Below are positions 4,113 through 36,729 of a DNA stretch of 36,729 nucleotides, one piece after another (within the stretch, counting starts at the first letter, position 1; each line of letters opens with the position of its first letter). The DNA lies in contig CAZBDF010000001.1 of NCBI GenBank assembly GCA_964490385.1, forward strand, positions 1 to 36,729. Reading direction: 5' to 3'. The DNA comes from an uncultured Lentimicrobiaceae bacterium (GTDB taxonomy: Bacteria > Bacteroidota > Bacteroidia > Bacteroidales > 4484-276). The position numbers and the translations under genes were made by a program. The notes under the pieces were generated by a model. That model saw only the letters and a list, made by a program, of their open reading frames with translations, did no database searches and was not told the origin of the DNA.

Positions 4113-5765
4113 TTACTTGATTACAAACCTTGAAGTTTGTGTTTCATTCGCTGTTTGAACTTTCAAAAAATATACACCGGCAGGCAGGTCGGAAACACTG
4201 ATTGTTTGGGTGTTGCTATTACTAACATTGGATTTCATAACGAGGCTTCCATGGATGTTAACAATACTTAGGTTTTGGATATCATTTCCTGAAACAATAT
4301 TCAAAATATCTGTTGCAGGATTTGGATATATCGCGAGCGAAGTAACTTCCTGATCAGATATACCTGTTGTATTGGTGATATCATCAGCATCGCGTGGGTT
4401 AAGTCTATACTCTCCAAAAGAAAAATCGACAACACCGGTGATACGGTAAACTTCACCAACTGTTAAAACCACATTTAGCAGCTGATAATCCACGTTATCT
4501 CCAATTTTAAATTGTGTTGTGCCGTCATCATCTGTACAGAGATAGTAGAAGTCCTCTTCGTTGTATTCAGTTACCAGGGCATTTTGAATATAGGTTAGCT
4601 GGCCTTCCCATTTTTCAGCCGATTCGCTGCCGGCAGGAAGAGTTATGTCTATATCGGCACCCATAATGAGTGAAGCAGGGTAAGGGTTATTCCCGGTGCT
4701 AAGGGTCTGAATGAGTATTGGGGAAACCAATTCATTTAAATCGTAATAAACATCTCTTTTTGCAGTAAAGATTACCTCGTCGCCCACGGCAACTTCTTCC
4801 TGAAAACTAAACCCAAAAATCATTACACCATGATAAGCACCTTCAGCATCGTGAACCCAAACATTGTTGTAGGCATCGTTGGCTGAAATGATTGCATGGA
4901 AGGTTGCAGAAATATCATTTTCGAGTACGCCATCAGGATTTGCATCATTGGTATGCGCGATGGATGCCATTCCTGCATAAATGTTAACAGGCTCGTCCAT
5001 TCCATCCTGGTTAAGCTGGTCAATGGTTAAATCGAAAACCATACTTTCGGATGCGTCACTCAGGTGTACCAGAGTCGCATCATCAGCATCAATCATAGCA
5101 CTACTAAAGGTAATATCTGTTGTGCCACTCAACATGAAATCAGCAGCATTTACTGCTTCAACATTTCCATTATAGCGCACATCCACTTCAGTTTCGCTCA
5201 TGCAATATGCATTTTCCATGGCCAATGTGGTCCATTCTTCGTATCCGCCATTTACAACAAGGTTGGTTCCACCGCTTTCTACAAAGGAAGCATTGTCAAC
5301 ATACACGGTGGCTTCATCCACAAAATCATCCTGGTCGTAAAACTTGATCCAAACGTAGGAAAATACAGCCTCATCAGGAACTACCGCAGTCCAGGTGATG
5401 GTTTGCCACTCGGGATTGTCTTCGGAATATATGGGAGCTTCGCCATAAATGTCATTCCCATCAGCATCGTAAAAATCTGCATAAATCTTTAAGCGGCCCC
5501 TGGTATCATTATCCAGGATATCCAGTGAAAACGTGTACTCTGCTCCTGTATTCACTGCGAAGTTGTCGCTTAGTAAATATGGCACATTGGTGGTGTGAAG
5601 GTTCATCTGGCAGGATTTAGCCCCTTCAGTAAAAAATTCCGTGTTGGGCTCCAGGCTAATATCGCCCGGGCTTGGTGCGTCGATGAACCAGTTTGTTGGT
5701 ACCTGGGCCGTAAGATTAAAGGCCAGTACCATGCATGTTAAAAAGAGTAAATGTTTCAGTTTCAT
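4113..5765 (-). CDS. T9SS-secreted protein with an N-terminal CBM-like beta-sandwich, a central OB-fold-like region and a C-terminal Por/T9SS sorting domain
   Basis: Signal peptide MKLKHLLFLTCMVLAFNLTAQ. C-terminus is LAIYPNPATDILNIV...LPAGVYFLKVQTANETQTSRFVIK, a typical T9SS CTD. The N-terminal roughly 170 aa resemble carbohydrate-binding-module-like jelly rolls. The internal domain calls are tentative. Confidence 0.8.
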   Translation of the reverse strand: MKLKHLLFLTCMVLAFNLTAQVPTNWFIDAPSPGDISLEPNTEFFTEGAKSCQMNLHTTNVPYLLSDNFAVNTGAEYTFSLDILDNDTRGRLKIYADFYDADGNDIYGEAPIYSEDNPEWQTITWTAVVPDEAVFSYVWIKFYDQDDFVDEATVYVDNASFVESGGTNLVVNGGYEEWTTLAMENAYCMSETEVDVRYNGNVEAVNAADFMLSGTTDITFSSAMIDADDATLVHLSDASESMVFDLTIDQLNQDGMDEPVNIYAGMASIAHTNDANPDGVLENDISATFHAIISANDAYNNVWVHDAEGAYHGVMIFGFSFQEEVAVGDEVIFTAKRDVYYDLNELVSPILIQTLSTGNNPYPASLIMGADIDITLPAGSESAEKWEGQLTYIQNALVTEYNEEDFYYLCTDDDGTTQFKIGDNVDYQLLNVVLTVGEVYRITGVVDFSFGEYRLNPRDADDITNTTGISDQEVTSLAIYPNPATDILNIVSGNDIQNLSIVNIHGSLVMKSNVSNSNTQTISVSDLPAGVYFLKVQTANETQTSRFVIK

Positions 5766-5791
5766 AATTAATTAATTTTTAGTTAAACATA

Positions 5792-6946
5792 TTATCTGTA
5801 TTTATCAATTCCTATCGCGTAAGGGTTGCAGTCAGTTATAAAATCTTCCTTCTCGCTGCCATCGAGGTTGGCGCGTACAATAATGCCATTGGTTTTGTCG
5901 CTCCAGTATAATTTGCCTGCATCCAAATCGATGTCCATTCCCCAGCAAAATATTTCTGTCATTTCGGGGGCAATCACAACCTCCCCTGTCCCATCCAGGT
6001 TAGCCTTGCAGATGCCTTTGTCGAAATCGGCATAATACATTTTATTGTTTTCAACATCTATGCACATGGCACCACCATTTGTTCCGGGTACCAGTTCAGT
6101 AAAGGTATTTCCATTGAAATCGACACTGTACATCCCGCCGGTAAAATCATACTTATCATTTGTAAAAATAAACTTTTCTGATAAATAATCCCAGGCAAGG
6201 TCGATGGCCATTTCGGGAGGTGTGGAAAGCGACATGGGAATAAATATCTCCGATTCACTGCCATCGAAGTTGCACCTGCCAATGGCTTCCTGGGTTCCCC
6301 AGTACAATTTATCACCCACTATTTCGAGCCCAAAGGGATCGATAAGGTTGGGGTCGTTGATATCAATCACTACCTGAAGGTCGAAGCCTTCGAGGTCGTA
6401 ACTATAAATCACACCCTCGCGGTAATCAGAAACAATTACCCTTGCATTGCTGGTGTCGATTACCATTCCATAGGGTTTATCCAGGCCGGTGTGCCCAAAG
6501 TCCTGAACTATCGGTGCATTGTCGTCTAAAACTGCATACCGCACGCTGTGGGTAGTACGGTCGGTAAAATAGAGGGTTTTCGTTTTTCCGGCAGTAGGAT
6601 CCTTCACCTGCAAGTTTACAACCTTTTTAAGTGTATTGTAGTAAACCTCGTTAGACGCACCAACGGTAAGCGCAACAGTGTAAGTGCCCGGCTCGGTGTA
6701 GCTTATTTCCGGTTCCATTTCGGTGGATGTTTCGCCATTGCCAAATTCCCACAGGTAGGATGTGGCAAGAATAGATTTATTTGTGAATTTGACTGTTGTG
6801 GGAGCAGTAAGGTTATTGGTGGCCTCGTATTCGAAGTTGGCAATGGTACTGGCTTCCGGCATCAGTTCCCCGTCTTTGCATGCATCCAGCAGCAGTATCC
6901 CAATTAGGATGAAAATAAGGTTTAAAAATATTGTCGAACGTTTCAT
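5792..6946 (-). CDS. Lipoprotein with a PKD domain followed by YWTD-type six-bladed beta-propeller repeats
   Basis: Lipobox signal MKRSTIFLNLIFILIGILLLDAC. PKD-like segment VKFTNKSILATSYLWEFGNGETS...GTYTVALTV. Repeated KLYWGT, KMYYADF and KLYWSDK blade motifs. Confidence 0.8.
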   Translation of the reverse strand: MKRSTIFLNLIFILIGILLLDACKDGELMPEASTIANFEYEATNNLTAPTTVKFTNKSILATSYLWEFGNGETSTEMEPEISYTEPGTYTVALTVGASNEVYYNTLKKVVNLQVKDPTAGKTKTLYFTDRTTHSVRYAVLDDNAPIVQDFGHTGLDKPYGMVIDTSNARVIVSDYREGVIYSYDLEGFDLQVVIDINDPNLIDPFGLEIVGDKLYWGTQEAIGRCNFDGSESEIFIPMSLSTPPEMAIDLAWDYLSEKFIFTNDKYDFTGGMYSVDFNGNTFTELVPGTNGGAMCIDVENNKMYYADFDKGICKANLDGTGEVVIAPEMTEIFCWGMDIDLDAGKLYWSDKTNGIIVRANLDGSEKEDFITDCNPYAIGIDKYR

Positions 6947-28480: not shown

Positions 28481-30247
28481 ATGGAAAGGCGCTGGGTTGT
28501 TAAGAATAAAGGGGATACGGAAATCGTTGCCGAGTTATCCCGTGCCCTGAATATTAGCTCGCTACTTGCATCACTTCTTGTACATCGTGAGGTATCAAGT
28601 TTCGGGGAGGCCAAAGATTTTTTTCGGCCTAAACTTCTTCAGTTACACGATCCTTTTTTGATGAAGGATATGGATATAGCGGTGGAAAGGATTGAGATGG
28701 CGATAAGAGATCGTGAAAAAATCCTTGTTTATGGCGATTATGATGTTGATGGCACAACGGCTGTTGCTTTGGTATATACTTTTTTGAAGTCAATTTATAA
28801 AGAAGTTGGTTTTTATATTCCCGATCGCTATTCCGAAGGCTATGGCATTTCGAAAGCCGGGGTGGATTATGCCGAAGAAAATGACTTTAGCCTTGTTATT
28901 GCGCTGGATTGTGGAATAAAAGCTGTAGATAACATTGCCTATGCAGCCGAAAAGAACATAGAATTTATTATTGTTGATCATCACCGGCCAGGTGATGAAC
29001 TTCCACCTGCCTATGCAATCCTTGACCCAAAAAGATTGGATTGCGATTATCCCTACAAAGAATTGTCGGGTTGTGGATTGGGTTTCAAATTGGTGCAGGC
29101 ATTTTCACAAAAAAACAACCTACCCTTTAAACGGCTTGAAAAGCTGTTGGACCTTGTGGTTGTTAGCATTGCATCTGATATAGTACCCATAAGCGGCGAG
29201 AACCGCATCCTGGCCTATTACGGGTTAAAAGTACTTAACTCAAACCCCAGGCCTGGTTTCATTGCCATCCTTAATTACAGCAATATTAAGAAAAAGGCGG
29301 ATTTTCAATATCTTGAAGATGATTTTGTTTTTAACCGCAAATTGGGTATCAGTGACCTGGTTTTCCTGATCGGCCCGAGGATTAATGCTGCCGGCAGAAT
29401 GGAAAGTGGGAATAATTCGGTAGAATTGTTGATCAGCAAAAATATAGAAGATGCACTTGAAAAAGCCGTGCAGATCAATCAATTCAATACTGAGCGCCGT
29501 AACCTCGACATGCAGATTACACAGCATGCGCTCGAACTTATTGCCAACGACCCGGATCATCCCAATCAAAAATCTACCATTGTTTATCATCCCGAATGGC
29601 ATAAAGGCGTACTGGGAATTGTTGCTTCCAGGATGACGGAAAACTATTACCGTCCAACCATAGTTTTAACCCAATCGAATGGATTTATTACCGGTTCGGC
29701 AAGGTCGGTTAAGGATTTTGATGTTTACAATGCCATCGATCAGTGTTGCGATTTGCTCGAACATTTTGGCGGACATAAATATGCAGCCGGCATGTCGATC
29801 AGGCCCGAAAATTTTGAAGCATTCAAGAAGCGATTTGAAGATTACGTTTCTGATACCATCGAAGATAAGATGTTGATCCCGGAAATTGCCATAGATGCCA
29901 AAATCAAACTGAACAATATCAGCACAAAGTTTTACCGCATCCTCAAGCAATTCGCTCCCTTTGGCCCCGAAAACATGGCTCCAATATTTATGACCGAAGG
30001 CGTGGTTGACACAGGGTACGCATGTATTGTTGGCAAAAACCACCTAAAGCTGAGCGTCACCCATCCGGATATTTCCGGATTCCCGGTTGCGGGTATTGCC
30101 TTTCAGCAAGGGGATAAATTACCCATTGTTCAAAGCGGAAAACCATTTTCAATTTGCTACCATATCGAAGAAAACGAGTGGAACGGCCATGTTTCCTTGC
30201 AACTCAACATCAAAGATATAAAGCCTATTGAAGAGGAAGAATATTAG
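28481..30247 (+). CDS. recJ: Single-stranded-DNA-specific 5'-3' exonuclease RecJ
   Basis: 588 aa. DHH motifs (VYGDYDVDGTT, LDCG, IIVDHH) and the DHHA1 motif GGHKYAAG. Confidence 0.95.
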   Translation: MERRWVVKNKGDTEIVAELSRALNISSLLASLLVHREVSSFGEAKDFFRPKLLQLHDPFLMKDMDIAVERIEMAIRDREKILVYGDYDVDGTTAVALVYTFLKSIYKEVGFYIPDRYSEGYGISKAGVDYAEENDFSLVIALDCGIKAVDNIAYAAEKNIEFIIVDHHRPGDELPPAYAILDPKRLDCDYPYKELSGCGLGFKLVQAFSQKNNLPFKRLEKLLDLVVVSIASDIVPISGENRILAYYGLKVLNSNPRPGFIAILNYSNIKKKADFQYLEDDFVFNRKLGISDLVFLIGPRINAAGRMESGNNSVELLISKNIEDALEKAVQINQFNTERRNLDMQITQHALELIANDPDHPNQKSTIVYHPEWHKGVLGIVASRMTENYYRPTIVLTQSNGFITGSARSVKDFDVYNAIDQCCDLLEHFGGHKYAAGMSIRPENFEAFKKRFEDYVSDTIEDKMLIPEIAIDAKIKLNNISTKFYRILKQFAPFGPENMAPIFMTEGVVDTGYACIVGKNHLKLSVTHPDISGFPVAGIAFQQGDKLPIVQSGKPFSICYHIEENEWNGHVSLQLNIKDIKPIEEEEY

Positions 30248-30278
30248 CGTTTTGGTGCATTTCATATTGAGACAACAT

Positions 30279-30320
30279 AAAAAAAGCCTCTCCAAAAAAA
30301 TTTGGAGAGGCTTTTTTTTT
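30279..30320. terminator. Bidirectional rho-independent terminator between convergent recJ and the T9SS cargo gene
   Basis: Perfect 13-bp stem aagcctctccaaa (30284-30296) pairing with tttggagaggctt (30301-30313), 4-nt loop. Flanked by an A tract on the left and a T9 tract (30312-30320) on the right. Confidence 0.8.
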
Positions 30321-30330
30321 GCCGGTTTTA

Positions 30331-30414
30331 GTCACCCGGTGAATAAGCCCTGAGATCATTTCTGCTTTCAGGAGTTCAGTTTCTAATGCTTATGCAAAAT
30401 TCACCGGGTGTGAC
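30331..30414. repeat. GTCACCCGGTGAAT-armed inverted-repeat element, copy 1
   Basis: Left arm gtcacccggtgaat (30331-30344), right arm attcaccgggtgtgac (30399-30414, one extra t). Internal hairpin cctga-N14-tcagg starts 4 nt after the left arm. Confidence 0.6.
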
Positions 30415-30421
30415 ATGTTAA

Positions 30422-30504
30422 GTCACCCGGTGAATATGTCCTGAAACAATTGTTGCACTCAGGAGTTTAGTACCCTCCTATCTTGAGGGGATTCACCGGG
30501 TGAC
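30422..30504. repeat. GTCACCCGGTGAAT-armed inverted-repeat element, copy 2
   Basis: Perfect 14-bp arms (30422-30435 and 30491-30504). It has the same cctga-N14-tcagg internal hairpin at the same offset as copy 1, plus a second hairpin ccctc-N7-gaggg. Confidence 0.65.
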
Positions 30505-30527
30505 TTGTTTCGTGCTACTAGCATCAA

Positions 30528-30635
30528 GACCTCATCCCCCAGCCCCTTCTCCTGAAGGAGAAGGGGAGTGCCAACGCACGGACCGACCTCTCCCCAACCC
30601 TCTCCTGAAGGAGAGGGAGTGCCAGCGCACAGGCT
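30528..30635. repeat. Two tandem GC-rich hairpin units of about 53 nt ('GEGWGEV' element), abutting the stop codon of the 1201-aa gene
   Basis: Unit alpha is gacctcatcccccagccccttctcctgaaggagaaggggagtgccaacgcacg. Unit beta is gaccgacctctccccaaccctctcctgaaggagagggagtgccagcgcacaggct. Each has a 9-10-bp central hairpin. They are about 90% identical by eye to the units at 36205-36362. Confidence 0.75.
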
Positions 30636-33600
30636 ATTGTAGCACAAGTTTTCTAACTATCTGCATTCCTTCTTGTGTTATTTTCAGGTAATATATTCCT
30701 TTCGGATGTGAAGCAAGATCAACACTGAAACCGTTAAATTGATCGTTGCCTTTCAGCAGTATGTTTCCATGGATGTCCAGTACTTCCCAATCGTTAACTT
30801 CGTTTGTGTTTTTCAATTGAATATTGAATTGGGCATTGGATGGATTTGGATAAATAGTCACTGATGTATTTACTTCTGAAGCTCCACTAATTCCGGTTGC
30901 CTGGATGCTCTTTATTGCCGATAAGCCGTGATTCACAAAATATCCATTTTGAGGCATTTGTTCATCAAATTCTACTTCCAAGGGATATTCCCTGGCAGTG
31001 AACAGATTAAAAATCCGAAAGTGAAATTGTTCACCCTCAGTCATTCCATCAACAAAAGGTGTAGTTGGGTCATCGCCATTTACCACAATCGCAAATGAAG
31101 CCTGAGTATTTTCACGGGAACATCCATACAAAACACCATCATCGCCAAATACACCAATTTGTGTTCCGGCTGATAGATCAGCTATTGCATTTTCGGGAAA
31201 AGCAATCGTGTGCGAAAATGGTGAGGCCGAAAGTTTACCCCAGTAGGAATCACAGAAATTGGTTTCAATATTTTTGAAGTCAGGTTTTTGGCTGGCACAG
31301 TCCTGGTAACTCAGGCTAATATCATCCGAAATCTTTATTTCGTAGGCTTGTCCGGGAAATAAATTTGTCAATGTATAAATCCCCATTTCCGGCCACCAAA
31401 CATTATTTCCAATCAGATCTTTTACGATTTCGATATTTGAAACCTGACCGCTAAAAAGAGCGTTGGCATCCACCGAACATGTTGATAATACCGGGAGATA
31501 GTACCAGGATTGCGCTTCGATTGACAGGCTTAATTCGGTGTTCTCCAAAGGTGTTCCACAAATTTCGAAGTTTTGCCCTGCATACGTTTTTATAACATAA
31601 CCCGAATTATTATCCCATGCCCCTATACTGTTAATGTTGTTGACGGGCCAGTACATAGCATTCAGGTTTCGCACAATTATCAAATCGTTTACCATGGGAG
31701 CAAACAATTCTTCTACAACCGGATTTTGAGGGGTAAGCCATAGCGAAATATCATTCCAGTTTTCTGAAAGTGTTATTTCCTGGCAAACCTGGCCTTCTAG
31801 ATTTAGTAAACTGGAAAAGCCATAGCTCTCAAATTCACCTGATGATTGTGGCATAAAGGGATTATAAGTAGCGAAAGCAGCGTAGCTTATTGCTTTATCA
31901 CATTTGTAAATCTTCCACTGGATTTGTTCACCGTCATCAAAGCCATCTTTTTCGGGTGTTGAAGGATCATCGCCATAAGCCGTGAGTTCAACATTTGAAA
32001 CTCCTGTCCATTGCACCCATCCACCACATCGGTCATCGCCATCATCATCTTTATAAAAAACACCTATCCAATCCTTGTCTTCAAGTGCCTTTCCAAAAAT
32101 CTGAGGATTAGCATCCAGCGGTATTAAAATCGTATGAAATAAAGGTGTTTGAGAGTATGACCATGCCGGATCGCAAGCATTGTTGATTCCTTCAAAATCC
32201 ATATCAAATATATTTACAACAACATTCCCAAGGTTTCTGGATTCAGGGAGAAAACTCCAATCTTCCTTAAAAGCGGTGATAGCCCCATTCCAGTTTACAG
32301 GAATAGAGGCTGTATATTCACCATTGATATTGGTGTAAACTGAAGTTTGATCGCTCAGTTGCACTTCAACGTTTTCTACAGGATTTCCAAATTCATCGCT
32401 TACAGTTCCGCTCACCAGAATTGAAGACAAGGGTTCTTCCCAGCTAAAGGGCGGGTATTCAATTGTAAATTGGTCTGTTGTACCAACCATTGCCACTGAG
32501 TAGGCAAAGCCTGGTTGCAGCATTGTAAAACCAGCGTTTTCGGGCGTCCAGAATTGGAATGTGCCCCAATCGTAAATCATTTGAATTTTGTCTAAATGGC
32601 CATTAAACAAATCTTCGATTGCAATAGGAATATCAGTAAGTACCGGCAGGTAGATAAGCTGGCCGTTCATTTCGAAAACCTTGCTTGAAATGTACGCTCC
32701 ATAAACCGATAAACATGCGGGTGGGTTGTTAAAGTTGGCCTGGTAGCCCACAGCATTCCAGTTTCCAATTTCATTGATGCCTGTTGCGGGATTATAGACC
32801 TTGCCTTCCACATCTTTAATTATCGTCAGGTAAGCTTCAACCGGAGCCAGGACTTCAGCCATGGATAAATCCCCATTATCGATGTAAGAGGAAATCCCCC
32901 GCCATCCACTTTGTGAAATTGGAATAAGCTGGGTTGGGATATGGAGTAAAGTGTTTTTGGAAACAGTGATGTTATATGGATCCAATCCCTCTGCAGAAAG
33001 CGTTAAAATCACCTCACCGCTGATAATATCATTTTCTCCCAAATAGTATTTTGGGTTCAGGCTGGTTGGGTCATCAAAGGTTCCGTCCCCTACCGTTGAC
33101 CAGCTTATAGAATTTGCAGCCTGCACCGTTACACTCAACTCAAATGGCAGCCATTGATCCTGCTCAAAATCAAAATGAGCACAATCTAACCAAAAGTCAG
33201 ATTCTAGTAAAATTACCGGGTGTGGATCGATGTTTACGGTTTGGGTATTTGTGAGGCTCCAATGTCCGTTTTGATCCATAGCCCGGACAAATATGGTGTT
33301 TTCGCCGGAAGGCACATCAGTAAGATTAGCAACAAAAGTGTAGCCCTGGATATTTGGTGCAGCACTTATGGGCAGGGCAATGCCATTGCCTTCACCAGGA
33401 TCTGAATTGAAAAAGTACTCAGCCCTGACGATATTTTGCGTTTCAGTAATTATGCTTTCCTTGAAAAATGAAATTGTGTTGGCAAAGCTCCAGCTTCCAT
33501 TGGCATCTTTTGACCGAACATACAATCGGTGAAAACCTTTGGTATAATCCGAAATATCAATATTCAAGTTTATTGAGCTGATATTAGTGGCAGCAGTAAT

Positions 33601-34239
33601 CGGAATTTCAGTTCCATTTCCTTCACCCGGGTCTTCATCCAAAAAATATTCAATGTAGGTGATGTCAGGAATTTCGGGATAAATGGTTTCATTATAAAAA
33701 GACTTTACAGCGGTCAGGCTCCAATTTCCATGGCTATCCATGGCGCGGATATTCAGGTGATGAAACCCGTTTTTTAATTCCGAAATGTCTGCTACAAAAA
33801 GTATCTCACTAATTTGCGGTGCAGCACTCATTGGAATTTCAATCCCCTTGCCTTCGCCGGGATCGTCATCCAGAAAGTATTCCACAGAAATAATATCTGG
33901 AATTTCAGCATAAACAGTTTCCTTGTAAAACGATTTTGCGCTGCAAAGACTCCATTTATTTTGGCCGTCTTTGGCACGCAGATAAAAATGGTTGAAGCCA
34001 TAATTCAGTGATGAAATGTCCAGGTCCAGATGTTGGTTTATAATTTCGTTTGCAGGAGCAATGGGGATGGAAATGCCATTTCCAAAACCCGGATCGACAT
34101 TGAAGAAATATTCCATCTCAACTATACAACTATCGCAATAGTCATTGTTGGAAGGGATTTCAGGTAAGCCTGATACATGCAAGCCCGGAAGGATAAGCAC
34201 AAAGCATAAGACAAAGATTTTAATTAGTTTTCGCATCAT
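30634..34239 (-). CDS. Large multidomain T9SS-secreted protein (paralogue A)
   Basis: 1201 aa. Signal peptide MMRKLIKIFVLCFVLILPGLHVSG, four 77-aa EYF.D.DPG.G.G repeats, a carboxypeptidase-regulatory-like domain (ILVSGTVSDEFGNPVENVEV), two HTI.(I/F)P...GDDP.TP..DG domains, and a T9SS CTD (IYPNPSNAQFNI...PKGIYYLKITQEGMQIVRKLVLQ). Confidence 0.85.
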   Translation of the reverse strand: MMRKLIKIFVLCFVLILPGLHVSGLPEIPSNNDYCDSCIVEMEYFFNVDPGFGNGISIPIAPANEIINQHLDLDISSLNYGFNHFYLRAKDGQNKWSLCSAKSFYKETVYAEIPDIISVEYFLDDDPGEGKGIEIPMSAAPQISEILFVADISELKNGFHHLNIRAMDSHGNWSLTAVKSFYNETIYPEIPDITYIEYFLDEDPGEGNGTEIPITAATNISSINLNIDISDYTKGFHRLYVRSKDANGSWSFANTISFFKESIITETQNIVRAEYFFNSDPGEGNGIALPISAAPNIQGYTFVANLTDVPSGENTIFVRAMDQNGHWSLTNTQTVNIDPHPVILLESDFWLDCAHFDFEQDQWLPFELSVTVQAANSISWSTVGDGTFDDPTSLNPKYYLGENDIISGEVILTLSAEGLDPYNITVSKNTLLHIPTQLIPISQSGWRGISSYIDNGDLSMAEVLAPVEAYLTIIKDVEGKVYNPATGINEIGNWNAVGYQANFNNPPACLSVYGAYISSKVFEMNGQLIYLPVLTDIPIAIEDLFNGHLDKIQMIYDWGTFQFWTPENAGFTMLQPGFAYSVAMVGTTDQFTIEYPPFSWEEPLSSILVSGTVSDEFGNPVENVEVQLSDQTSVYTNINGEYTASIPVNWNGAITAFKEDWSFLPESRNLGNVVVNIFDMDFEGINNACDPAWSYSQTPLFHTILIPLDANPQIFGKALEDKDWIGVFYKDDDGDDRCGGWVQWTGVSNVELTAYGDDPSTPEKDGFDDGEQIQWKIYKCDKAISYAAFATYNPFMPQSSGEFESYGFSSLLNLEGQVCQEITLSENWNDISLWLTPQNPVVEELFAPMVNDLIIVRNLNAMYWPVNNINSIGAWDNNSGYVIKTYAGQNFEICGTPLENTELSLSIEAQSWYYLPVLSTCSVDANALFSGQVSNIEIVKDLIGNNVWWPEMGIYTLTNLFPGQAYEIKISDDISLSYQDCASQKPDFKNIETNFCDSYWGKLSASPFSHTIAFPENAIADLSAGTQIGVFGDDGVLYGCSRENTQASFAIVVNGDDPTTPFVDGMTEGEQFHFRIFNLFTAREYPLEVEFDEQMPQNGYFVNHGLSAIKSIQATGISGASEVNTSVTIYPNPSNAQFNIQLKNTNEVNDWEVLDIHGNILLKGNDQFNGFSVDLASHPKGIYYLKITQEGMQIVRKLVLQ
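33202..34125 (-). repeat. Four in-frame tandem coding repeats with a period of exactly 77 codons (231 nt)
   Basis: Repeat starts are IVEMEYF (aa 39), IISVEYF (116), ITYIEYF (193) and IVRAEYF (270). Each unit contains EYF.(D/N).DPG.G.G..(I/L)P(I/M).AA and (R/I)(A/S)(K/M)D..G.WS. Confidence 0.8.
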
Positions 34240-35486: not shown

Positions 35487-35567
35487 GTCACCCGGTGAAT
35501 TCTGCTTTTGATTTGTCGCAAAACTTGTGGGTTTATTACTCCTCACAAGAACCATTCGCCGGGTGAC
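35487..35567. repeat. GTCACCCGGTGAAT-armed inverted-repeat element, copy 3
   Basis: Arms gtcacccggtgaat (35487-35500) and attcgccgggtgac (35554-35567, one mismatch). The interior differs from copies 1 and 2 but again contains two small hairpins (ttttg-N8-caaaa and cttgtg-N14-cacaag). It lies 10 nt after the stop codon of paralogue B. Confidence 0.55.
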
Positions 35568-35577
35568 CTGTTATGCT

Positions 35578-36729
35578 TTATTGCAGCACAAGTTTCCGAA
35601 CTACCTGTGTTCCTCCTTGTGAAATCTTCAGGTAGTATATTCCTTTCGGATATGAAGTCAGATTAATGGAAAAATCTTTGTCCCTCTCGTCGCCTGTGGC
35701 AATGATCGAGCCGTGGGTGTTAGTAACTTCCCAGTCAGCATCAAGACCTGACAGGTTTTGAAAACCTGTTAGGTCTGCATGGCGAACATTAAATATCCCT
35801 GTTGATGGATTTGGGTAAATATTCACAGAAGTTTCTATTTTTGAAGCTCCACCAATTCCAGTAACCTGGATGCTCTTTATTGCTGACAAGCCATGATTCA
35901 CAAAATATCCAACCTGTGGCATTTGTACATCAAACTCAACTTCCAGTGGATATTCCTTGGCAGTTTCGGGATTGTAAACACGGAACTGCATAGTTTCACC
36001 TTCAGAGAAGCCATCTATTTGTGTTGTAGTTGGATCATCGCCATAGGCAGTTAAAGCCAGGTTGTGATTTTGGTAAGGGACAGCACCGTAGCATTGGCCA
36101 TTTGCTCCATACACAACGATGATATCGTCCTCGCTTAATCCTGAAATTGCTTCGGATGGGATGGCGATGGTGTGGGTTATTGGGGTTTTGACCTCAGCCA
36201 AAAAGACCTCACCCCAGCCCTCTCCTTGAGGAGAGGGAGTGCCGGCGCGCGGGCTGACCTCATCCCCCGCCCCCTTCTCCTGCAGGAGAAGGGGAGTGCC
36301 GGCGCACAGGCTGACCTCACCCCAGCCCTCTCCTTCAGGAGAGGGAGAGCCGCCGCGCTGGCCATCTCCTTCCCCCTCGAGGGGGAAGGCCGGGATGGGG
36401 GTACACTCCGGAAACTCCACCTCAACATCTTCATCCACCAACGCAAAATATGCTTTTCCGGGTTTAATCAAATTCAGCGTATTGATGCCAAACTGTGGCC
36501 AGTAAACATTTGGCCCGGCTATTTCTTTTACGATTTGTAGGCTGCCCTGGATTTCAGCAAACAAGTCTTCTGACATATTATCACAGGCATTCAACACGGG
36601 CAAATAATTCCATCCATCTTCAAGATTTACAGTTAGATTTTGCTGCATATCCCCGGTGAAAGTTACTTGCTGGGCCGTTTCCATTTTCACCTGGTAGCCA
36701 TCCATATCGCTCCAGTTGCCGATGGTATT
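35578..36729 (-). CDS. T9SS-secreted protein, paralogue B (5'-truncated by the window edge)
   Basis: Homologous to the C-terminal roughly 335 aa of paralogue A (YLPVL, VKE/DL.G.NV.WP, HTIA(I/F)P, YGDDPTT, EYPLEVEFD.QMPQ.GYFVNHGLSAIKSIQ, PKGIYYLKI.Q.G.Q.VRKLVLQ). The frame stays open from 36705 to 36729 (NTIGNWSD aligns with INSIGAWD of A). Confidence 0.8.
   Translation of the reverse strand, partial: NTIGNWSDMDGYQVKMETAQQVTFTGDMQQNLTVNLEDGWNYLPVLNACDNMSEDLFAEIQGSLQIVKEIAGPNVYWPQFGINTLNLIKPGKAYFALVDEDVEVEFPECTPIPAFPLEGEGDGQRGGSPSPEGEGWGEVSLCAGTPLLLQEKGAGDEVSPRAGTPSPQGEGWGEVFLAEVKTPITHTIAIPSEAISGLSEDDIIVVYGANGQCYGAVPYQNHNLALTAYGDDPTTTQIDGFSEGETMQFRVYNPETAKEYPLEVEFDVQMPQVGYFVNHGLSAIKSIQVTGIGGASKIETSVNIYPNPSTGIFNVRHADLTGFQNLSGLDADWEVTNTHGSIIATGDERDKDFSINLTSYPKGIYYLKISQGGTQVVRKLVLQ
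35744..35776. repeat. 33-nt palindrome (16-nt arms, one mismatch) embedded in frame in the CTD of paralogue B
   Basis: agacctgacaggtttt g aaaacctgttaggtct. It encodes LTGFQNLSGL and corresponds to a roughly 7-codon surplus relative to paralogue A at the same CTD position. Confidence 0.6.
36205..36394. repeat. Three to four tandem 'GEGWGEV' hairpin units embedded in frame in paralogue B
   Basis: Units at 36205-36255 (beta type), 36256-36312 (alpha type) and 36313-36362 (beta type), plus a degenerate hairpin ccttccccctcgagggggaagg (36363-36394). Translated as PLEGEGDGQRGGSPSPEGEGWGEVSLCAGTPLLLQEKGAGDEVSPRAGTPSPQGEGWGEV. Confidence 0.75.

Follow-up and report, generated by a model that had tools for sequence, protein, structure and literature searches.

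We analysed a window of 36,729 nucleotides, the whole stretch presented here, from an uncultured Lentimicrobiaceae bacterium whose genome, a metagenome-assembled genome (MAG) of 618 contigs and 4.73 Mb with 40.5% G+C and a completeness of 82%, is called the source genome below. The right-hand part of the window carries two paralogous genes, A and B, for cargo proteins of the type IX secretion system (T9SS), and at the stop codon of A lies an extra block made mostly of two G+C-rich hairpin units, beta and alpha, at a site that is empty in B. The features needed to compare the two gene ends are the following.

30634-34239, minus strand: gene A, a 1201-residue T9SS cargo protein with a C-terminal Por_Secre_tail domain (list of open reading frames, ORFs; Pfam PF18962, E = 1.3e-13)
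30634-30636: TAG stop codon of gene A (the plus strand reads CTA)
30585-30635, minus strand: unit beta, in gene sense AGCCTGTGCGCTGGCACTCC-CTCTCC-TTCA-GGAGAG-GGTTGGGGAGAGGTC (nhmmer, E = 1.5e-11 and 8.9e-7)
30582-30584: 3-nt joint between alpha and beta
30528-30581, minus strand: unit alpha, in gene sense CCGTGCGTTGGCACTCC-CCTTCTCC-TTCA-GGAGAAGG-GGCTGGGGGATGAGGTC (nhmmer, E = 3.8e-9)
30517-30527, minus strand: 11 extra nucleotides, ACTAGCATCAA on the plus strand and TTGATGCTAGT in gene sense, placed by the alignment within the indel and outside any unit
30505-30516, minus strand: ancestral 12-nt spacer, in gene sense AGCACGAAACAA, homologous to the 10-nt spacer of B, AGCATAACAG (35568-35577)
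30331-30504, no strand assigned: two tandem armed palindromic elements (GTCACCCGGTGAAT ... ATTCACCGGGTGAC) in the 3' untranslated region (UTR) of A (sequence)
30279-30318, no strand assigned: bidirectional intrinsic terminator serving recJ (plus) and gene A (minus) (terminator scan, fold)
35578-36729, minus strand: gene B, the paralogous T9SS cargo gene with the empty site, its 5' end beyond the window (Pfam PF18962, E = 1e-12)
35487-35567: single armed element of B (sequence)

The gene recJ (28481-30247, plus strand) converges with A. According to the translations, A, B and their relatives share the C-terminus ...RKLVLQ*, and A and B are 78% identical in protein over the last 27 codons and about 40% identical outside two conserved patches; they are not recent duplicates.

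The gene ends were compared by global alignment of the minus strands and by direct reading. In gene sense, A reads ...AAACTTGTGCTACAA-TAG-(CCTGTGCG...GATGAGGTC-TTGATGCTAGT)-AGCACGAAACAA-GTCACCCGGTGAAT..., with the extra block in brackets, and B reads ...AAACTTGTGCTGCAA-TAA-AGCATAACAG-GTCACCCGGCGAAT..., that is, its end runs CAA-TAA-AGCATAACAG directly into the armed element. In a longer alignment the stretch before the stop is ...CTTGTGCTACAA TAG in A and ...CTTGTGCTGCAA TAA in B. Homology between the two genes picks up on both sides of the indel and continues through the armed element to terminators that resemble each other, GCCTCTCCA.../GCCTCTTCAG.... What only A possesses is a stretch of 117-118 nt (30517-30633/4) between stop and spacer, composed in gene sense of the two hairpin units in direct orientation, beta and then alpha, followed by the 11 extra nucleotides. 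Together the units form a 107-nt beta-alpha dimer, and the G+C content of the block is about 66% vs 40.5% for the genome. A sequence-only reading of the window had described this block against an empty B, as 11 nt followed on the plus strand by alpha and then beta at about 30517-30634, and had noted that the 3' consensus of a unit overlaps the complement of the stop codon, with TAG in A where B has TAA. The alignment and the direct reading agree with each of these points: the 3' flanks of A and B are homologous and the boundaries hold within 1-2 nt. The block is no product of chance, given its G+C content and the match of its units to a genome-wide family, and an assembly chimera is ruled out, as on either side the sequence is collinear with the gene end, spacer, armed element and terminator of B. 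Most probably, although with no more than moderate confidence, the block is a derived insertion of the beta-alpha dimer in the short spacer that separates the stop codon of A from its first palindrome.

The 11-mer TTGATGCTAGT occurs four times in the genome, about the level expected by chance, and the GCTAGT within it lengthens a complementarity to the gene end. We also considered that the sequence on the right of the block might be a decayed second gene end, and rejected this, as the best local alignment was CTTG-TGCTA (shuffle p = 0.32, genomic p = 0.26). The 12-mer GGTCTTGATGCT is found again in the coding sequence of B at 35737, there after a mini AGACCTAACAGGTTT hairpin, as a single 12-nt match. 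At this place (35737-35776, minus strand), inside the sorting domain of B, lies an in-frame palindrome, AGACCTAACAGGTTTTCAAAACCTGTCAGGTCT, that represents in minimal form a third type of hairpin element (AGACCTAACAGGTTT ... AAACCTGTTAGGTCT) from the 3' UTRs of relatives (L013 at about 6350-6440, L015, L017; here and below, L, C and G numbers are our handles for loci, contigs and genomes). After the palindrome comes TGATGCT, which is also what comes after unit alpha in A.

The exact left boundary of the block touches the stop codon itself. In head-to-tail arrays and in the core of a mobile element described below, units begin (T/C)-AGCC-N-GTGCG, and the unit at A thus starts at the A or the G of TAG; in the consensus end AGCC of beta, the first two bases, AG, are bases 2 and 3 of the stop codon (30634-30635). 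At the right-hand junction the sequence is ...GCTAGT|AGCACG. With AGCC at the start of the unit consensus, the boundary is ambiguous by 1-2 nt and three parses can be written. The original sequence may have been CAATAG+AGCAC, one substitution away from B, with an insert of 117 nt; or CAATA+AGCAC, differing from B by 1 nt in a run of A, with an insert of 118 nt that supplies the G; or the insert may measure 115 nt and stand between TAG direct repeats. They are equally parsimonious and none is favoured. Therefore, of the claim that the element supplied the third base of the stop codon, the overlap with the stop stands, and the supply itself is possible but not demonstrable from the sequence. The case calls for caution, as a stop codon apparently supplied by an element can be an ambiguity of alignment.

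BoxC, PIT and related triplex-motif repeats have been known since the 1990s, and there is no accepted account of their origin, means of spread or function. The units at A have the architecture of these repeats: a leader, (A)GCCNGTGCGNTGGCA, is followed by a pyrimidine arm, a 4-nt loop, a complementary purine arm, 2 nt and a mirrored purine block ending in GTC. In beta the three blocks are CCCTCTCC-TTCA-GGAGAGGG-TT-GGGGAGAGG, where the third, GGGGAGAGG, is the exact mirror of the stem arm GGAGAGGG plus one G; alpha also has three blocks, CCCCTTCTCC-TTCA-GGAGAAGGGG-CT-GGGGGATGAGG, with an imperfect mirror. Holder et al. (2015, PMC4666352), citing earlier BoxC/PIT studies of Bachellier and of Hoyne and Maher, grouped BoxC, PIT and TMECO as G/C-rich class II intrastrand triplex motifs, tied them to genomic instability at loci prone to deletion and rearrangement, and found no link to mobile elements (PMC4666352). 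Their strict TMECO pattern, CCCTCNCCC N3-6 GGGNGAGGG N3 GGGNGAGGG (PMC4666352), has no match in the window, and because it fails we place the units in the broader G/C-rich class and not in TMECO sensu stricto. A sibling unit of the source genome (C176:3498-3553), used as query in place of A's own units and of low complexity, matched BoxC copies of 2510 E. coli genomes with 85% identity along 45 nt; the one E. coli match inspected lies between fimH and gntP. By architecture, the units are of the BoxC/triplex-motif type.

A search of Rfam returned no match at gathering score and only weak ones of beta-type units to whalefall-1 (RF01762), at 19-21 bits vs 37. These sub-threshold matches lie on the minus strand at 30585-30619, 36205-36239 and 36313-36347. 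The whalefall-1 consensus (CUCUCC hairpin ... AGGGUGAGGAC) has a similar layout of a hairpin plus a purine tail, and this metagenomic small RNA motif may itself be a repeat of the same class.

Other copies were searched for in the source genome and in the 23 genomes of the family. A broad nhmmer profile found 130 units at 56 loci of the source genome, 52 of them intergenic, and A's units match this genome-wide family with E values of 1e-6 to 1e-11. A 203-bp element accounts for about 40 of the loci, with 25 full-length copies; its core is an inverted unit pair, and its terminal inverted repeats (TIRs) are GTAATTATTTAGG.../...CTAAACAATTAC. Direct repeats of at least 5 nt flank 12 of the 25 full-length copies vs 1.0 expected from shuffled pairings, and the typical target site duplications (TSDs) are 8-9 bp. 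The 203-bp element is a genuine miniature inverted-repeat transposable element (MITE), of which three copies in the source genome serve as examples.

G000:C34:10077-10278: copy of the 203-bp MITE
C103:6883-7082: copy of the 203-bp MITE
C516:380-576: copy of the 203-bp MITE

A second module, consisting of a reverse unit, a spacer and a forward unit, occurs single and in tandem at C182, C76 and C387. The block at A is a bare direct beta-alpha dimer without TIRs: its ends, GCCTGTGCG... and ...GGTCTTGATGCTAGT, are not inverted repeats of each other, and its edges show at most a 2-3-nt TA/TAG repeat, which is within chance. Among the 23 family genomes, the full 107-nt dimer was found only at A, in B (36256-36362, 84%) and at C157:5045-5147 (84%), the last being in the linker of another paralogue. 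Single alpha-like units in other genera reach 90-98% identity.

The copy in B belongs to an array that is translated in frame, and B-like paralogues of at least three other genera (genomes G016, G009 and G019), 33-59% identical to B, have unit arrays in the same linker, the one that joins FPEC(T)P to THTIAIP. These arrays are as follows.

36201-36402, minus strand: in-frame array of B, three direct units (beta-alpha-beta) and one inverted unit (nhmmer, translation)
L029 (G016:C108), L030 (G009:C1137), L044 and L056 (G009:C680): linker arrays in B-like paralogues
L045 (G016:C105), L047 (G019:C209) and, in the source genome, C157:5045-5152: further linker arrays in B-like paralogues

They translate as ...PSPxGEGWGEV / TPLLLQEKGxGDEV.... 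Since other genera carry arrays at the same linker, the array of B is old or recurrent and not specific to B: either the array itself is old, or the linker is a long-standing hot spot. It is also the nearest relative in sequence of the dimer at A. The sequence-only reading had taken the fact that A and B carry units at sites empty in each other as a sign of recent mobility. This sign is weak, as the array of B is shared across genera and the two proteins are only about 40% identical. That the units are mobile or recombinogenic in general is, on the other hand, supported by the TIR/TSD MITE, a module present in four copies in one sequence and one in another, and the published instability of such motifs (PMC4666352). 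The module counts come from L013 (Ga0307990_1000633), where four tandem 202-nt modules lie at 5394-6204, and L014 (Ga0307991_1002717), where there is one at 5369-5572; the flanks are 100% and 99.8% identical, and the figure of 4 vs 1 copies carries the caveat of a possible assembly collapse.

We then asked what the stop codons of comparable genes look like. No unit stands at the stop in the 66 other T9SS-tail gene ends of the source genome (1/67 including A), and within 4 nt of the stop one was found in 1 of 40 further paralogue ends from six relatives (L068). A narrow subfamily of these genes ends in KLV[VL]Q, followed by an armed palindrome and a GCCTCTC terminator, and its members B, L016, L084 and L005 have the empty arrangement, with spacers of 5-14 nt. 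The presumed ancestral layout shown by these ends is a stop codon, a spacer of 1-14 nt, an armed palindrome and a terminator of the GCCTCTC type. In A-like genes of other genera an element begins 0-2 nt past the stop: L004 an armed palindrome 1-2 nt after TAA, L003 a different GC hairpin 1 nt after TAA, and the closest orthologue of A found in genome and metagenome scans, at only 59% protein identity (L002/L013/L018), as well as the paralogue L017, read CAA TAA|CCCCATCCCC..., which is a reverse-orientation unit of the second module type. As the block is absent from B, from the 66 other gene ends and from L016, L084 and L005, it is best read as a derived insertion in A, and the simplest history would be a gain on the lineage of A.

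A preference of the units for stop codons, which had been raised together with other target motifs, finds no general support in the surveys of gene ends, unit loci and MITE copies. Unit loci within 7 nt of a stop number 4 of the 56 in the source genome; MITE copies within 12 nt of a stop number 4 vs 2.9 expected, and a stop-codon preference of the unit-bearing MITE was rejected as there is no enrichment. No motif is common to the left flanks of bare units. A small hairpin holding the stop codon in its loop was also tried as a target and rejected: it is predicted in B and, once the insert is taken out, in A as well (z about -2.4), and it is absent in L016 and L004.

How could the dimer have come to lie flush with the stop? 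Placement by cut-and-paste is disfavoured because there are no TIRs and no clear TSD. More probably the dimer was copied in by replication template switching provoked by its structure, or during break repair from another array, and the likely pool of sources would be the linker dimers of B and of the C157 paralogue, since they are the only other full-length copies. As to the position, the end of the ORF of A is unchanged by a dimer flush with the stop. A landing upstream of the stop would add about 39 codons, as the sequence-only reading had also suspected, and a landing in a palindrome or the terminator would damage it; moreover, the 3' UTRs of the subfamily are packed with palindromic elements up to the stop. 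Insertions that spare both the ORF and the palindromes would be confined to about a dozen nucleotides, so that selection would explain much of the flush position; some site targeting may add to it. The stop-flush dimer alone is probably a small, near-neutral event.

Several points weigh against this reading as an insertion. The polarity rests only on parsimony among paralogues, as no relative compared has the A/B cassette beside recJ, and there is thus no orthologous locus to polarize it. In a comparison of window 28481-34239 with L132-L136, the cassette of A, a beta-helix gene and B is absent downstream of recJ in all five relatives, one of which, G002, is of the same genus with a RecJ 85% identical; the position of the cassette beside recJ is thus specific to the source genome. 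The TAG...TAG direct repeat at the edges of the block fits a 3-nt target duplication as well as a microhomology deletion in B. The 11 nt TTGATGCTAGT are not accounted for. Finally, the three to four stop-flush cases in one subfamily exceed what uniform landing would give (about 1% by a rough estimate).

This last excess would be accounted for if the units were non-autonomous partners of an enzyme that prefers gene ends, a Vsr-like DUF559 nuclease or an HUH/RAYT enzyme. Stop-flush elements do recur in the A-like subfamily of another genus and in L068. Of the 13 strong DUF559 genes in relatives, 5-6 have units on both sides at a distance of no more than about 200 nt, at the following loci.

L100 (G014:C73), L101 (G011:C66), L102 (G009:C938): unit-bracketed DUF559 loci
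L103 (G016:C10), L104 (G020:C815), L105 (G018:C208): further unit-bracketed DUF559 loci

At L102, GGGGATGGGGC and GCCTCACCCC enclose the DUF559 gene; in the tandem arrays of C387:4127-4711 precisely these two unit ends are joined directly, with no gene between them. However, the source genome, 82% complete, has a single Vsr-like DUF559 match with no units nearby, the repeats on either side of its Y1_Tnp gene at C288 are of another family, A has neither TIR nor TSD, bare units have no motif in common on their left, and the units are not enriched at stops (1/67 and 1/40 gene ends; MITE 4 vs 2.9 expected). We therefore regard targeted insertion as unlikely. The polarity could instead be the reverse, with units or similar GC hairpins present at the stops of the subfamily before the genera split and lost from B by a deletion between short repeats. 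A-like genes of other genera do have GC-rich elements 0-1 nt past the stop (L002/L013, L017, L003), triplex loci are reported as prone to deletion and rearrangement (PMC4666352), and a TAG direct repeat flanks the block of A. Yet the stop elements of the relatives differ from it in subtype, orientation and architecture (a reverse unit, spacer and forward unit, or an unrelated hairpin), B, L016, L084, L005 and L004 would each need a clean independent loss, and the dimer of A, at most 84% identical to any other copy, resembles the linker dimers of paralogues and not the stop-site modules of the relatives. Such an ancestral presence is distinctly unlikely.

The junction might also have been made only once and been passed on as a gene-end cassette, in which the last codons, the stop and the units are copied between T9SS paralogues through the homology of the KLV(V/L)Q-stop end. 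What speaks for it comes from G016 and a metagenome contig (L013/L014), where the inserted element is followed by the canonical gene end once more, ...GGAGGATTGCAAACAATGAAGAAGCTGGTGGTGCAATAG: each L013 module runs from a reverse unit through a spacer and a forward unit into the last ~40 nt of the gene including the stop, and module and gene end are amplified in tandem, four copies vs one. In G016 at least seven paralogues truly end in this same 35-mer, and decayed gene-end copies follow palindromic inserts at L015 (about 5565-5700, ...GGAGGATTACAAACCATAGAAAAGCTGGTGGTGCAATAA) and L017 (about 4350-4700, ...GTGAAGAAGCTGGTGGTACATCAG). These copies suggest either insertion with a long gene-end duplication or recombination between paralogue ends. 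For A itself we consider a cassette very unlikely, as the sequence after its units has no significant similarity to a gene end (local alignment p ~0.3) and the junction CAATAG|CCTGTG occurs in no other gene of the source genome. A bolder proposal, which we rate as a long shot, would join some of these observations: triplex units, alone or with a DUF559 cassette, may be break-and-copy elements that prefer 3' gene ends and keep the ORF, either because they abut the stop, like the dimer of A, or because they duplicate the last 20-45 nt of the gene, as in the G016 orthologue, with the KLV(V/L)Q-stop end as a recurrent landing site. If true, the orphan BoxC/PIT repeat class would gain an insertion mechanism and a target rule. 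Under the favoured insertion of the dimer into A, the locus offers a clean pair of filled and empty sites in a Bacteroidota genome, with the insertion point fixed within 2 nt at a stop codon, and its value is that of one data point on whether triplex repeats target gene ends.

In the 3' UTR of A, the dimer, the two armed palindromes and the terminator follow one another, and three kinds of palindromic element are stacked there. Arms of the armed type were found at 21 sites in the source genome. The arms co-vary between genera, GTCACCCGGTGAAT, GTCATCCGATGAAT, GCCACGCCGTGAAT and GTCAACCGGTGAAT each having a matching 3' arm (L016, L084, L004, L013), and the element keeps its place just after the stop of the T9SS subfamily and before the GCCTCTC-type terminator.

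Concerning the effect on the transcript, hairpins of the E. coli repetitive extragenic palindromic (REP) elements within about 15 nt of a stop codon are said to protect mRNA 3' ends and, reportedly, can lower translation by stalling terminating ribosomes (findings ascribed to Liang, Rudd and Deutscher, 2015). The 381-nt 3' region of A folds at -176 kcal/mol (z = -11.5), with a predicted RNA hairpin of about -25 kcal/mol for each unit (beta -25.1) and a predicted 13-bp stem of the gene end (UUGUGCUAC..UAGC) with GCUAGUAGCACGA, in which the 11 nt take part and which encloses the dimer. The first stable pairing in the fold lies about 10-17 nt past UAG. By analogy, the likeliest functional outcome for A would be a modest REP-like effect: the dimer would protect the 3' end of the mRNA and perhaps damp termination or translation somewhat, a specific function being less likely.

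Comparison with known systems places the locus among several families of short repeats. With MITEs and truncated REP-like derivatives it shares a genome that has a 203-bp MITE with a unit-pair core, and bare units without ends resemble truncated MITE derivatives; QMITE2 of Coxiella is such a MITE with truncated REP-like derivatives, mostly in 3' UTRs (reviewed in PMC10969869). Unlike these, the block of A is a direct dimer and not an inverted pair, retains nothing of the MITE arms, and consists of units with a GGCACTCC leader and a CTCTCC stem, a subtype distinct from the core units of the MITE. The Rickettsia palindromic elements (RPEs) are alike as a hairpin family tolerated in ORFs or at their edge, and the B-type arrays are read in frame; in contrast to them, A's copy lies outside the ORF, there is no kinship in sequence, and RPEs are about 150 bp long and richer in AT.

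With REP elements and bacterial interspersed mosaic elements (BIMEs), the likeness is that short GC-rich extragenic palindromes stand between stop and terminator, often very close to the stop, that they form stable mRNA stem-loops (here by folding prediction), and that they make a mosaic of element types, here triplex units, armed palindromes and AGACCTAACAGGTTT hairpins; palindromic units are indeed clustered in the 3' UTR of A. The units differ in their third purine block, and are thus not simple palindromes. No RAYT gene flanked by triplex units was found, the PF01797 matches at C288 and C58 having no such units. At C288:4400-5480 a gene for a 174-residue Y1_Tnp (IS200/RAYT-like) protein has GGGCGTTTACGCCC palindromes and GGATTCCGTAGCTCAGGGCTTCAGCC units on both flanks, which looks like a separate REP/RAYT system.

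The BoxC/PIT/TMECO repeats share with the present units the order of a C/T arm, a 4-nt loop, a G/A arm, a 2-3-nt loop and a mirrored G/A block ending in GTC. Both are G+C-rich islands in a genome of lower G+C, mostly intergenic, and both occur as solo units and inverted pairs at loci that differ between close relatives. The present units have stems of 8-10 nt and a second loop of 2 nt, vs published stems of 9 nt and a loop of 3 nt, possess at the 5' end the conserved leader (A)GCCNGTGCGNTGGCA, are joined head to tail into direct beta-alpha arrays of which some are translated in frame, and live in a Bacteroidota (Lentimicrobiaceae-like) MAG and not in a proteobacterium or cyanobacterium. Moreover, some of them ride in a TIR/TSD MITE, whereas Holder et al. 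saw no link to mobile elements. To the record of this class the locus adds units within such a MITE in the same genome and units that bracket DUF559 nuclease genes in relatives.

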